64,000 bases of DNA, taken from positions 36,890,001 to 36,954,000 of the forward strand of contig OZ336871.1 in NCBI GenBank assembly GCA_965287045.1, written 5' to 3'. Position 1 is the stretch's first letter, and each line of letters opens with the position of its first letter. Below are positions 17,530 to 34,183 of the stretch, piece after piece. The stretch is from Carcharhinus amblyrhynchos. Lineage: Eukaryota. Made by a program: the position numbers and the translations under genes. The notes beneath the pieces were generated by a model. The model saw only the letters and a list, made by a program, of their open reading frames with translations. It did no database searches and was not told the origin of the DNA.

Positions 17530-19085
17530 GCCAGAGATCAAAAATATAGAAATGTAAAATGGTCACAGCACAGAAGGATGCTATTCATCTCATTGAACCC
17601 ACTCTAGCTCTCAAAAGGAACAATTTGCTTCTGTAATCCTGCAATTATTTTCCCTTCAGGTGCTTTTTCAACTCAAGGCCACAATTGAAATCTGCTTCCA
17701 GCATACTGTCAGATCATAACCAGTTACTGTATAAAAATGTTTGTCCTCGTGTTGCCTTTTAAATTTTTGTCAATCACTTTAGATGGCATTCTCTAGTTCT
17801 TGAATTTTCTACCAATGAGAACAGATTCTCTCTATTCCGTCTAGACTTGTCATGATTTTGACTACCACTATCAAATTTCCTCCCAATCTTCTGTTCCTGA
17901 AGGAAAAGAAGCCCAATTTCTCCAATCTAACCACATAACTGAAGCCCCTTATTCCTAGAACCATTCTCATTAATCTTCTTTGCACCTTTTTTTACCCTCT
18001 CATGTCTCCCAAAATGCAGTACCCAGAATTGGACTTAATACTCCTACTGAGGTTGAACCAGTATTTTATAATGATGCACAATAATTTCCTTGCTTTTGTA
18101 CTCTATGTGCTGAACATTACAGGCTACTTGTGGATGTGAAAATAGGCGGATAAACCCATAATTTCAGACACTTTACCATCAGTGGCATGCTCATTGCTGG
18201 TCTACCTGCTCTAACCCCTTCCCCTTAGGGATATCTGAGAAGATGTCAGATGGGTTGCCCAACCTGTGACCAATTTGAGGCTCTTAAATGGGCAGAGAGG
18301 TCTCTGCCAATGGGAAGATAGGCCTCTGCCAATGTGTAGCCTGGCAGGTGTAACCCTGCAAGGCTGCTGGTCAGTGAAAAGGATCTTTCCCAGGTCCCCT
18401 GTGGCATTCAGAAGGTCTTCCCACCCTCCACAACTGTTTTACTTACCTGCATCCACCCTACCACCATCCTGTCCAAATGCCGCCAACCACCTCTCACTGG
18501 GGCCTGTCAGTCAGGCCCCAGTGAGATCTCATACTTAATTGAATGTCCAGGTCCATCACTGAATGTCGTCTCCTTGGCCTAAATGCATCACCAGCAGTGG
18601 CCACCACACTTGCTTGGTTCTGCCAGTCTGCACAGTTGCCAGTCTCCAATTGGCTGGCAACTCTGTGCAGTGGGATGTCCTCCTGGAGATGGATGGAAGT
18701 CCCATCTTACAATAACTAAAGGGTCATCACCTAAAAAACTAAAATGGGGCATGCCAGCTAAATGGAGGCAGTCTTAAACACGGAAATTTACACATGGATC
18801 CAGAGAGCCCAGCATCAGCATAAAATCCTGCCCTACGCCTTTATTTGTAAAGATGAGGATTCCATAGGTCTTTTAAACAATCTTCTTAAGCTATCCTTCA
18901 TGTTCAATGATTTGTGCACATATACCCTCAGGTCCCTCCACTCCTCCATCCCCTTTCGAATTATATAATGTTACTCCTACCAAAATGAATTACTTCACAC
19001 TTCGTTGCACTATATTTTATCTGCTGCATATCTCACCTATTCCAGTAGCCTGTCTATGCGATCTTGAAGTCTATCATTATCCTTT
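17530..19085 (-). mobile_element. Old CR1 fragment interrupted by a Harbinger-type non-autonomous element (about 18107-18832)
   Basis: CR1 motifs occur on both sides. The insert ends in the TIR-like TAAAATCCTGCCC. Confidence 0.6.
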
Positions 19086-20063
19086 CTAAAGTTGTACAGT
19101 TAAAGCACATGGGATTGCAGGTAATGTCTTGAGATGTATAGAAAGCTGGTTAGCAGATAGGAACAAAGATTCAGCATAATTGGGTCTTTTTATGATTGGC
19201 AGGTAATGAATAGTGGGGTACTGCTGGGGTCTTTGCTGGCACCCCAACTGTTCACATGATATATCAATGATTTGGAAGAGGGAACTAAATGTATTATGTC
19301 CAAATTTGTAGATGATACAAAGTTGAATGGGAGGGTGAGCTGTGAGGAGAATGCAGAGATGCTTCAGCATGATTTGGACATCTGTGTGGCAAATGCAGTA
19401 TAATGTAGATTATTGCAAGGTTATCCACTTTGGTAGCAGTAATAGGATTATTATTTGAACAGATTATTATTTTAACAGATTATTATTTGAATGAGTATAA
19501 ATTGAGAGAGGTGGATACTCAGCAAGACCTTGGTGTCCTCATGGATTAGTTGCTGAAAGTAAGCACATAGGTACAGCTGACAGTAAAGAAGGCAAATGAT
19601 ATGTTGGCCTTCGTAGCAATAGGATTTGCGTACAGGATTAGGAATGTTTTACTGCACTTGTATAGGGCATTGGTGAGACCACACCTGGAGTATTGTGTGC
19701 AATTTTTGTGCTCTTATTTGAGGAAAAACTTCCTTGCTATAGAGGTAGTATAGCAAAGGTTTACCAGACTGATTCCTGGGATGGCAGGTCTGTCATATGA
19801 GGAGAGACTAAGTCGGTTAGGATTGTATTCTTTGGAATTTGGAAGAAAAAAATTCTAACACGGTTAGGTAGGATAGATTCAGAAGAATGTTTCCGATGGA
19901 GGAGTCCAGAACTAGGCGTCATAGTTTTAAGATAAGAGGAAAACTTTTTAGAACTGAGGTGAGGAGAAATTTCTTCACCCAGAGACTGGAGAATATATGG
20001 AATTCATTACCATAGAAAGTAGTTGAGGCCAAAACATTTGTGATTTCAAGAGCAAGTTAGATA

Positions 20064-20728
20064 TAGAACATAGAACATAGAAAAGTACAGCACAGTACAG
20101 GCCCTTCGGCCCTCGGTGTTGTGCCGAGCTACGTCCTAACCTAAGATCAAGCTATCCCACTCCCTATCATTCTGGTGTGTTCCACGTGCCTATCCAATAA
20201 CCATTTGAAAGTTCCTAAAGTGTCCGACTCCACTATCACAGCAGGCCATCTATTCCACACTCCAACCACTCTCTGAGTAAAGAATATACCTCGGACATCC
20301 CTCCTATAGCTCCCACCATGAACCTTATAGTTATGCCCCTTAGGAACAGCTACACCCACCCAAGGAAATAGTCTATCAATGTCCACTCTCTCAATCCCCC
20401 TCATCATCTTATAAACCTCTATTAAGTCACCTCTCATCTTCCTTCGCTCGAAAGAAAAAGGCCCTGGCTCCCTCAACTTTTCCTGTTAAGACCTGCCCTC
20501 CAAACCAGCAAGGCTGCATCCTTGTGAATCTCCTCTGCACTCTCTCCAACGCTTCCACATTCTTCTTGCAGTGAGGTGACCAGAACTGTACTCAACATTC
20601 CAAATGTGGTCTCACCAAGGTCCTGTATAGTTGCAGCATAACCCCACGACTCTTAAGCTCAAACCCCCTTTTAATAAATGCTAACACACGATAAGCCTTC
20701 TTCACGGCTCTATCCACTTGAGTGGCAA
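20064..20728 (-). mobile_element. 5'-truncated CR1 LINE fused to CDS2-derived sequence
   Basis: ORFs 20592..20858 (ATQVDRAVKKAY..LYRTLVRPHLE) and 20147..20476, with an (AGAACAT)n tail. Confidence 0.9.
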
Positions 20729-20887
20729 TATATATTTTGATGTTCAATAATAAAGTTTTAAAAAGAGGTTTTGCATCAAACCCTGTGTGCTGATTAAGAC
20801 AGCACGATAAGTGGTTTGGTGAATTGCTAGCTGCTGACTCTGAGAATGTGTGGTCCACCCAATGTTGTTTTTAGACTGAAACATTAC

Positions 20888-21027
20888 CTGCTAAGTAGAG
20901 AGCAAAGGAAATGAAGCGGTGGTATTTGCTCAGGATCCGAAGGGGCTCCTCTCTCTGAACCAGTGTGAAAAACGTATCTGTTACCGTCTCGCCGTAGAAG
21001 AAGTAATTGGCACACAGCAAGAAGTAC
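20888..21027 (-). pseudogene. CDS2: Isolated 140-bp exon of CDP-diacylglycerol synthase (CDS2-like) with intact splice sites
   Basis: Encodes (W)YFLLCANYFFYGETVTDTFFTLVQREEPLRILSKYHRFISFALYLA(G), nearly identical to vertebrate CDS2 as I recall it. Acceptor TTTTTCCTTTTTAAG| and donor |GTAATG, phase 2/1. No other CDS exons were recognised in the window. Confidence 0.85.
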
Positions 21028-21057
21028 CTTAAAAAGGAAAAACGCGTATTTATAGAT

Positions 21058-21350
21058 ATAGAATTCCTACAGAAGGCAGCCATACGGCCTTTTGAGTCTG
21101 CACTGACAACAATCCCACCCAGGCCCTATCCCTGTAACCCCACATATTTACCGTACTAATCCCCCTGGCATGAACAGACAATTCAGCATGGCCAATCCAC
21201 CTAACCCACGTATCTTTGGACAGTGGGAAGAAACCGGAGCACCTGGAGGAAACCCACACAGACAAGGGGAGAATGTACAAAATCCACAGACAGTGATGCA
21301 AGCCGTGAATCAAACCCAGATCCCTGGCGCTCTGAGGCAGCAGTGCTAAC
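21058..21350 (-). mobile_element. HE1-type V-SINE
   Basis: Reverse complement of the V-domain and tRNA head. A second, internally deleted SINE lies at about 21369-21500. Confidence 0.85.
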
Positions 21351-21510
21351 TAAGCAGTGCTAAACAAGTTTATTTATTTAGTAGTGTCACAAGTAGGCGC
21401 GGGGAGAACATGCAAACTCAACATAGACAATGATTTGAGGCCGGAAATCGAGCCCAGGTCCCTGGCGCTGTGAGGCAACAGTGCTAACCACTGTGCCACT
21501 CTGCTACCCG

Positions 21511-21852
21511 GGTGAGAGGGGAGAAATACAAATGGGTCCAGAGGGACAGTTTCTTCACACAGAAGGTGGTGAGTGTCTGGAACAAGCTGGCAGAGGTAGT
21601 AGTAGAGGCGGGTACAACTTTGTCTTTTGAAAAGCATTTAGACAGTTACATGGGGGAAGATGGGAATTTCACAGTAACTTCATTGCAGCGTTAATGTAAG
21701 CCTGACTTGTGACTAATAAACTGAAAAAGGTGGGTATAGAGGGATATGGGCCAAGTGAGGAAACTGGGGCCAGCTTGATGGTTCAAAACCGGGTGGCATG
21801 GACAAGTGAGGCTGAAGGTCCTGTTTCCATGCTGTGAACCACTGTGACTCTA
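21511..21852 (+). mobile_element. CR1 3' fragment with a SINE tail inserted (about 21652-21720)
   Basis: SFFTQKVVSVWNKL motif and a CR1 3' end. Confidence 0.75.
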
Positions 21853-22924
21853 TAAAAGACGTGATCTGATCAGCCATGATCTTAGTGAATAGTGGGGCAG
21901 ACTCCAGGGGTTGAATGGCCCTATCCCTGCTCTTATTTTACGTCCCCCACACTTGGGGCTAAAGGAATCAAGGATATGGGGGAAGGGAGGATCAGGATAT
22001 TGAATTTGATGATCATAATGAATGGTGGAGCAGGCTCAAAGAGCTGGATGACCTACTCCCGCTTCTAGTTTCAATGTTTCTAAATATTTCAAAATTCTAT
22101 GTCATCAGCAAATTTTGAAATGCACCCAAGTCTTGGTCATTAAAATAGATCAAGAAAAGCACTGGTCTTAATACTGACAGCTGGAAAAATTTACTTCCTA
22201 CCATGTTCCTGTCCAAAAATAACCATTCACCACTAGTAATATGTGTTTAATGCAATGATTCATCATAGGGATCTGTCCTGAAAAGATATGTTGATCTTAT
22301 ATTGAGACCAGTATGTAAGTGTAGTCATGCATTATTGTGTCTTTTTTTAATTGAAGAAAATGCTTTACCGCATCATACTGGAAAAGAAAATGGGCACGGC
22401 TTACTTCAATATACTTGGATGCATCTCATAGGGTCCTGGGGTCTTGTCAACTTTCAGTTTTGACAGTCTATTCATCCCTTCCTCCTTATCAATTTTGAAC
22501 CCTTCTAGAGGCAGAATTTCTTTGTCTGTCACTAAGGGAGGAATTTTACATGCTTTCCCCACCTATCGATGGGCACAGCGAGCTGGTAAAATCACTCAAG
22601 AGCCAAAAAATTAGGATCATGCCAAATTCTTGGCTCTTACAATTTTATGAGAGCCAGATTTTCAATGAGGTCAGCCTCTTACTGGAAATGGGCGAGAGGC
22701 TGAATAATTTACTTAAATATATTTAAACTTGAATTTCCATATGTTTAGTGAGCCCAGTGCTCAATCGTCCAGGCTCATTTGCCTTTATGGCCTCACACCT
22801 CCTCCCCCCACACGCCCCCCCCCCACCCCCAAAATGAGCAACAGTCTGTTGGTTAAGCTGGTGGAACTGGAGGCCATTGAGGCCTCCCCGGGGAGGCCAA
22901 GGGTTAGGGCATGTGCACATTTAG

Positions 22925-33250: not shown

Positions 33251-33442
33251 GTAGTCTGACAGTTTACTTGCATGGATCCACAATTGTCAAATGCAAGCTG
33301 CCTACTCTCTGGGACATAGTGGGGGCTGACAATGGTTTGCCCATCTTCACCACTGCTTCCTATCTGGATTTACTGACATTAAAATGGAAACCACAAACAA
33401 CCTTCTGAAATAAACCATTGCCATTGTAGTTGAACAATCGCT

Positions 33443-34183
33443 ATGAACTTCCAGACCACTGGTGATTCCACTGAAAAACAATTGTTTTCTTCTGAGGAGC
33501 TGGAATGCAAAATCTGTTATAACCATTACAATCTGAAGAACAGGAGACCCAAGTTGTTGGAATGCTTTCACAGGGTGTGTGCCAAATGCCTGTATAAGAT
33601 TGTAGACCCTGGAGACTCCTCACAAAGTATAATTAGTTGTCCTTTCTGCAGGTATGAGACGAGTGTACTGGATGATGAAGTTGGTGGACTTCCAGATGAT
33701 AGTAATGTCCTTGCTGCCCTGGCATGCAAGGAGAAGAATAGAAAGCCTGCCTTGGACAACGCATCTGAGCTCCTACTGAGTCCAAAAACATTAGCTTCCA
33801 TTGCAAGTCCCTTCCATAGCTCCTCAAACTGTCTGGTTATCACTATCATGGAAGTTCAAAGAGAATCCCCACTATCTCAGAGATCACCATCAGCCATGGA
33901 AGTCCACAGCTCCAGTTTTGATTCAACAGCCTCAATGTCTCAGCAGTGGGAAATTTGGAATTGCCCTCCCCTACTCTGTCATATCATAGGAAGAATCTTA
34001 GTCTGGGTACTAGGACTTCTATATTTTGCTTCTTTACCTCTTGGTGTATATCTGCTAGTGATTCAGAAGGTCACAATGGGGATTATATTTGTCAGTCTTG
34101 TTCCCTCCAGTCTAGGTATACTTATGGTCTATGGTTTTTGTCAATGCTTGTGTCATGAGTTTTTGGATTGCATATCCTCATGA
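33443..34183 (+). CDS. RNF182: E3 ubiquitin-protein ligase RNF182(-like), single coding exon, 246 aa
   Basis: C3HC4 RING ([19 protein letters not shown]), the conserved [16 protein letters not shown] segment, two C-terminal hydrophobic TM segments and [13 protein letters not shown]. Colinear with vertebrate RNF182 over its full length. Confidence 0.93.

Follow-up and report, generated by a model that had tools for sequence, protein, structure and literature searches.

A stretch of 64,000 nucleotides (hereafter the window; G000:C2:36890001-36954000, in a searched genome of 2.92 Gb) holds on its minus strand a single coding exon of the phosphatidate cytidylyltransferase gene CDS2, set among LINE sequences. 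The questions raised by this locus are where the exon was derived from and by which process it was carried there. A first-pass annotation had attributed it to a new CR1 insertion whose reverse transcriptase (RT) switched template onto CDS2 pre-mRNA, thereby creating a chimera of 984 bp flanked by an 11-bp target-site duplication (TSD). In the current study the exon was compared with its donor gene, with relatives of the LINEs on either side of it and with other insertions in the same genome.

Results

Identity of the exon and its donor

The region immediately around the exon comprises the following features:

20888-21027, minus strand: CDS2 exon of 140 bp, AG/GT splice sites intact, one synonymous difference from the donor
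20729-20887, minus strand: unique sequence from the start of the downstream CDS2 intron
20072-20728, minus strand: 5'-truncated fragment of a CR1-type LINE, resident in the donor intron and copied along with it, 3' hairpin intact

This arrangement agrees with the first-pass annotation, which had described an AG/GT-bounded 140-bp exon with a near-perfect CDS2 peptide (here minus strand 21027-20888), then some 160 nt of intron (159 nt) and a 5'-truncated CR1 in matching orientation, 3' tail included. The 46-aa peptide of the exon shares 91-96% identity with the best-scoring vertebrate CDS2 (phosphatidate cytidylyltransferase) matches, the best being that of Callorhinchus milii at 96%, and every match naming a paralogue among the 120 listed of 279 says CDS2; a Pfam search with this peptide alone returned no match.

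Intact splice sites and an open frame are what a native gene, or an old CDS2 paralogue, at this locus would also present. This explanation has next to no probability, as just one of 22 genome matches of the full CDS protein lies on contig C2, the remainder forming an ordered exon series on C34 and a more diverged series on C1, and tblastn with the same protein found no other CDS exon in the window. Twelve coding CDS2 exons follow one another in order on the plus strand of C34 (tblastn, 100 kb of C34), the orphan exon corresponding to the fourth of these; C34 therefore carries the CDS2 gene and the window an orphan copy, which bears out the earlier view that the exon is not native. The C1 series (G000:C1:111407539-111447627, minus strand) is probably CDS1.

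A search of the genome with the 324 bp surrounding the exon gave exactly two matches, namely the window itself and C34:17376228-17376551. A near-identical second copy with intron flanks had been predicted and was found on C34, but the accompanying prediction, that no CR1 would adjoin it, failed. Identity to the donor extends well beyond the exon, as outlined below:

20067-21953, minus strand: whole copied unit, ~1.88 kb; donor G000:C34:17375195-17377208 (plus strand), within the CDS2 gene
21028-21953, minus strand: 3' portion of the upstream CDS2 intron, made up largely of old repeats (tRNA-type SINEs and pieces of LINEs in antisense)

Copy and donor differ by 17 substitutions in 1881 aligned bases (99.1% identity; aligned span 21953 to 20072). 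The unit is thus ~1.88 kb long by identity to the donor and not 984 bp, with ~926 nt of upstream intron in place of the ~25 nt formerly assigned. It takes in 1058 of the 1380 nt of the upstream intron (in donor coordinates), the exon and 816 of the 1871 nt of the downstream intron, and holds no complete intron. The SINEs in the copied upstream intron are presumably HE1-like and the LINEs HER1/CR1-like, repeat types that, together with the best peptide match, point to a cartilaginous fish; the SINEs, the left 11-mer of the supposed TSD and the CR1 fragment are all already present in the donor intron. The exon was consequently moved to another chromosome-sized contig as intron-exon-intron DNA of an intact CDS2 gene. 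Neither a third copy of the unit nor a copy of the next 9 kb of CDS2 was found in near-identical form among the best 40 candidates scored per search.

The donor intron also carries a 132-bp LINE tail (G000:C34:17375584-17375715) with TTCTG on either side, which is absent from the copy. The copy preserves the empty site of this insert, which either arrived later or is polymorphic in the donor.

The resident CR1 fragment

The LINE at the 3' end of the unit, which we take to be of the CR1 clade from its tail and the end of its ORF2, lies on the plus strand of C34 as do the CDS2 exons. Its 659-bp CR1 part is 99% identical to the donor and 91% to the next family copy (best 40 of 8526 candidates). 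When 23 other family copies are used for comparison, 36 columns, among them a 4-nt insertion, are private to donor and copy, which differ mutually at 7 internal sites; the final 50 bases contain just one private change. The donor fragment deviates from its family's column majority at 50 positions (7.6%), as against a donor-copy difference of 0.9%. Because the private changes common to donor and copy number 36, compared with 17 differences over the whole unit, the resident CR1 is, to judge from these alignments, old and was in the CDS2 intron before copying took place.

It was this result that decided against the template-switch model of the first-pass annotation. Although the order of exon, intron and CR1 tail and the 11-mer on which it was built are indeed present, the same CR1 sits in the donor at the same junction and shares the private columns, the insertion among them; the next-best family copy reaches only 91% against the donor's 99%, and identity to the donor continues for 890 nt beyond the supposed TSD. 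Owing to the shared position and the private columns, the model is refuted beyond reasonable doubt. The junction of cellular sequence and LINE, which a template-switch chimera creates anew, exists in the donor.

The last 72 nt of the donor fragment fold into a stem-loop topped by a GGGCC-GAAG-GGCC hairpin. In a longer copy of the resident LINE's family, a frame of 500 aa encodes an RVT_1 domain. Families of CR1 that share this hairpin and tail repeat show 97-98% identity among dozens of copies and were recently active in the genome.

The 11-mer taken for a duplication

21053-21063, minus strand: left copy of the 11-mer, which is the tail of a SINE and occurs in the donor too

The window contains this 11-mer at two places (20058-20068 and 21053-21063), the donor stretch at one. 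The letters of the repeat described earlier are thus present at both sites, yet they do not constitute a TSD, one copy being the donor's SINE tail; that at 20058-20068 straddles CR1 tail and target. The pair is a by-product of similar tail repeats. No 11-bp TSD was seen among the readable control tail-ended insertions of the 1.764 Mb survey described below.

Target site and junctions

The unit had been placed inside an older CR1 resuming at about 21952, and this holds with resumption at 21954. The target and the two junctions are as follows:

19093-20066, plus strand: target, one half of an older CR1-type LINE
21954-22095, plus strand: target, other half of the same LINE, rejoining the first with 0-2 bp missing
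21950-21953, minus strand: 5' junction, 2-4 nt common to target and donor (AG or AGTG)
20067-20071, minus strand: five bases absent from the donor, extending the TTCTATG tail in register and running into target CTAT

Most of 24 relatives of the target element have just two bases (usually AG) between the corresponding flanks, and the window either kept two such bases (TG, found in 2 of the 24) or lost them. Because the target flanks rejoin within two bases in these relatives, the unit has no TSD and 0-2 bp were lost. Neither long homology at either junction nor a poly(A) tail was found.

The 3' end of the copy coincides exactly with the resident CR1 hairpin and TTCTATG tail, in CDS2 sense. The donor tail ends after TTTTCTATGTTCT, while the copy goes on for five in-register bases into target CTAT; these extra bases are counted against the present-day donor, which could have lost a tail unit later.

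Several of these properties are those of known insertion classes. As in target-primed CR1-type insertions, the 3' end lies at the hairpin and a short tail repeat, and the missing TSD and the tail-target microhomology resemble those of other insertions in this genome. As in 5' transduction, the element and its upstream flank lie together at the donor, the copy has new outer flanks, and the element is co-oriented with the upstream host transcription unit. The removed introns, poly(A) tail and long TSD of an L1-type processed retrocopy are all wanting. Microhomology, micro-deletion, the lack of TSD and poly(A) and an intact donor also characterise class 2 templated insertions, although these are features shared with CR1-type insertion.

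Survey of tail-ended insertions

In a control survey of 1.764 Mb, 153 tails were located (79 LINE and 74 SINE), using a strict motif by which decayed tails are undercounted; 41 of the 79 LINE tails carry the same 16-mer as the donor hairpin tail. A repeat continued downstream of 50 of the 153 tails, and its upstream half was found for 39. Twenty-four of the latter were kept as resolvable, the other 15 being weakly supported, ambiguous, redundant or false joins, and 9 tails with apparently long inserts were inspected individually. The resolvable set consists of the CDS2 unit (sampled by design), two tandem CR1-CR1 arrangements and 21 insertions of essentially the element alone, such that unique upstream DNA accompanied 0 of the 23 others (upper 95% bound 12%). 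By visual reading, the control junctions extend from a loss of about 6 bases to a duplication of about 8, frequently with overlap into the tail, as is the case for the donor's 132-bp insert; the junction of the CDS2 copy falls within this range of ordinary CR1 junctions.

The strict motif makes lower bounds of the estimated probabilities that a random 3' end falls at a co-oriented LINE tail (2.5e-4 to 4.7e-4) and that a random hit does so when either end and LINE or SINE tails are allowed (up to 1.8e-3). A local estimate by hand, from 4 sense tails in the 19.5-kb CDS2 span, gives ~0.4%, likewise a lower bound.

Three other arrangements were encountered. A single split target (L219:4250-6403; G000:C2:148564250-148566403) contains two LINEs, from different families, in head-to-tail order, as if co-inserted or one inserted at the other's tail, and no second joined copy of this pair was present among 40 candidates scored. 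A similar head-to-tail LINE pair is found at C2:148499158-148496785. A SINE-ending stretch of 2219 bp near G000:C34 17128447 has a 100% identical second copy within the surveyed stretches and represents a recent local duplication or an assembly duplicate.

Age of the copy and integrity of the assembly

Changes polarised as derived number 7 in the copy and 8 in the donor, with 2 unresolved. Their distribution over window 21900-20204 is lopsided: all 6 in the 5' part arose in the donor, and 7 of 9 in the 3' part arose in the copy (Fisher p=0.007, post hoc). Chance or recombination between CDS2 haplotypes may be responsible.

Short-read contigs from 4 of 24 listed runs (X1, X3, X5 and X7) were compared over 18600-21200. 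X1 and X3 match the unique flank fully; 6 of 523 letters differ in X5 and 19 of 525 in X7. At positions 20973 and 21065 X5 and X7 have the donor letters, X1 has the copy letters at both, and X3 one of each. From the flank divergence, the copying event is of roughly the same age as the split from the organism of X5, or younger. The copy's variants thus exist in independent read assemblies, but X1 or X3 may be the source sample and CDS2 alleles would look alike. Depth over the exon versus the unique flank is 17.6 versus 14.2 (X1) and 19.2 versus 13.1 (X3), figures that do not represent a copy number.

A second CDS2 haplotype misplaced into C2 during assembly could account for a 0.9% difference, which might be allelic, and no contig listed from the four runs bridges the 3' junction (one X7 contig reaches 29 letters into the CR1, 31 being required to count as bridging); with repeats on both sides of this junction, the result is no evidence either way. 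Such an artefact is nevertheless very improbable, given that the two halves of the target fit together to within 0-2 bp of the arrangement in 24 family copies, that one end lies exactly at the tail with extra tail bases, and that the nearest assembly gaps in the surveyed stretches are ~233 kb away on C2 and 163 kb on C34. The copy is, on the sequence evidence, real, young and single.

Functional context

33434-34183, plus strand: single-frame RING-finger ORF of 249 aa (RING domain by Pfam) with a hydrophobic C-terminal stretch

The exon is antisense to this ORF, the nearest coding one identified, and lies 11.5 kb upstream of it; the name RNF182 for the RING ORF is that of the first-pass annotation only, and a CpG-island scan located no promoter for the gene. 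The exon has moved with its splice sites intact, but the description of the locus as an exon-shuffling intermediate is weak, in view of the exon's length, 140 bp not being a multiple of three, and of its antisense position. The copied unit is probably inert and without function.

Discussion

The proposal that CR1 RT brought the exon into the older CR1 is probably correct in its agent, albeit not by template switching. The explanation that we consider the most probable is that an active CR1 RT used the dead CR1 tail of an unspliced CDS2 RNA as its binding site and copied the RNA upstream of this tail, i.e. a 5' transduction in trans. Germ-line RNA carrying the tail would have been provided by CDS2 pre-mRNA, a skipped-exon lariat or an intronic transcript. 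An internal SINE promoter was also considered as RNA source and was ruled out because the unit begins ~440 nt upstream of that SINE. CR1 ORF2 made elsewhere would have bound the hairpin in trans and primed on target CTAT via the tail repeat, a single slip on which may have added the five tail bases. Synthesis would then have proceeded through the CR1, the intron, the exon and 926 nt of upstream intron, stopping 322 nt short of the previous exon, and the 5' end would have been joined via 2-4 nt of microhomology.

Our preference for this route, with ORF2 acting in trans on RNA of the CDS2 intron, is due to the end of the copy at a sense tail, which is improbable by chance, to the biochemistry of UnaL2, to the existence of tail-borrowing SINEs and to the recent activity of CR1. 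In the L2 element UnaL2, reverse transcription begins in the 3' repeat, requires the stem-loop and slips on the repeat (PMC1636434), and five extra in-register tail bases would, by analogy, be expected from slippage of this type. SINEs are reported to borrow LINE tails for their mobilisation (PMC3747384). We infer an RNA intermediate, since the copy includes no entire intron that splicing could have removed. Some observations count against the model: break-repair patches likewise show microhomology, minute deletions and short additions templated nearby (PMC5110952); a tail unit may have disappeared from the donor subsequently; the chance figures, derived with a strict motif, are lower bounds; the template needs both flanking introns unspliced and offers no free 3' end at the tail; and this is a single case, with none among the 23 other resolvable insertions.

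The main rival, formerly the second option, is a DNA-level patch: microhomology-mediated synthesis would have filled a double-strand break within the older CR1 with 1.88 kb taken from CDS2 genomic DNA, the end at the CR1 tail arising by chance or via a repeat favouring template release. The absence of a TSD, the loss of 0-2 bp, the 2-4 nt of microhomology at both ends and the retained introns all suit such a patch, and class 2 templated insertions, as characterised in PMC5110952, look alike. We nevertheless regard it as unlikely, as it requires a coincidence of ~0.03-0.4% in position and orientation, the 4-nt target match is too common to single out the tail, and the extra bases continue the tail repeat.

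Should transduction by CR1 RT be the correct reading, it bears on an accepted restriction. CR1 has been described as recognising its own 3' sequence, a property invoked for the scarcity of retrocopies in CR1-dominated genomes (PMC5470649, PMC3136929), and a 2026 preprint credits 14,081 retrocopies in cartilaginous fishes to CR1 or Tx1 by correlation (10.64898/2026.06.26.734816). The donor-copy pair offers a concrete way round CR1 stringency, namely a host RNA that already bears the tail. Tentatively, dead sense intronic CR1 tails could possibly serve throughout the genome as handles by which a stringent CR1 RT copies unspliced host RNA. If this is true, CR1-rich genomes, thought to be retrocopy-poor, disperse intron-containing exon cassettes that retrocopy screens miss because introns are kept while poly(A) and TSDs are absent; dispersed duplicates with an end at a sense intronic CR1 tail would be the signature for which to screen.

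Comparison with known systems

A literature search, with most subscription journals outside its coverage, found no report of this exact arrangement, though its parts have parallels. In L1 template-switch chimeras (U6-L1 and similar), cellular RNA sequence lies 5' of a truncated LINE (PMC4494074); these make their junction during insertion, whereas the CDS2-CR1 junction pre-exists in the donor. Class 2 templated insertions bring in distant sequence with microhomology and micro-deletion, without TSD or poly(A), and the part of that account drawn on here does not explain why a patch should stop at a LINE tail oriented for priming (PMC5110952). In the habu snake, PLA2 genes are coupled to a CR1 fragment (PcRTF) and CR1-linked retrotransposition has been suggested (PMC4280545). 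There too a host gene sequence is followed 3' by a CR1 fragment, but the PLA2 genes, in the portion of that report considered, are tandem at one locus and the mechanism is only suggested, whereas CDS2 provides a dispersed donor-copy pair with both junctions.

The closest likenesses are to systems in which an enzyme works in trans. Stringent recognition of a 3' stem-loop and short repeats is reported to result in the copying of any tail-bearing RNA (PMC3747384, PMC1636434, PMC5135761), as with the tail-borrowing SINEs, namely eel UnaSINE/UnaL2, shark and ray HE1/HER1 and turtle PolIII SINE/CR1. These SINEs differ in having their own Pol III head and in amplifying, while the CDS2 unit is without an identifiable promoter of its own and one copy was found. 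In SVA 5' transduction, for example that of SVA_F1 and MAST2, host sequence upstream of a non-autonomous element is moved by a LINE enzyme in trans (PMC3287187), and the CDS2 unit likewise places host sequence 5' of the element. SVA, according to the same source, uses L1, poly(A) and TSDs of 4-20 bp, and SVA_F1 took MAST2 by splicing (PMC3287187), in contrast to the decayed CR1 handle, the lack of poly(A) and TSD and the unspliced cargo of the CDS2 unit. By analogy, then, the arrangement described here would work like SVA 5' transduction combined with the tail-borrowing of SINEs, with a decayed CR1 as its handle and unspliced RNA as its cargo.
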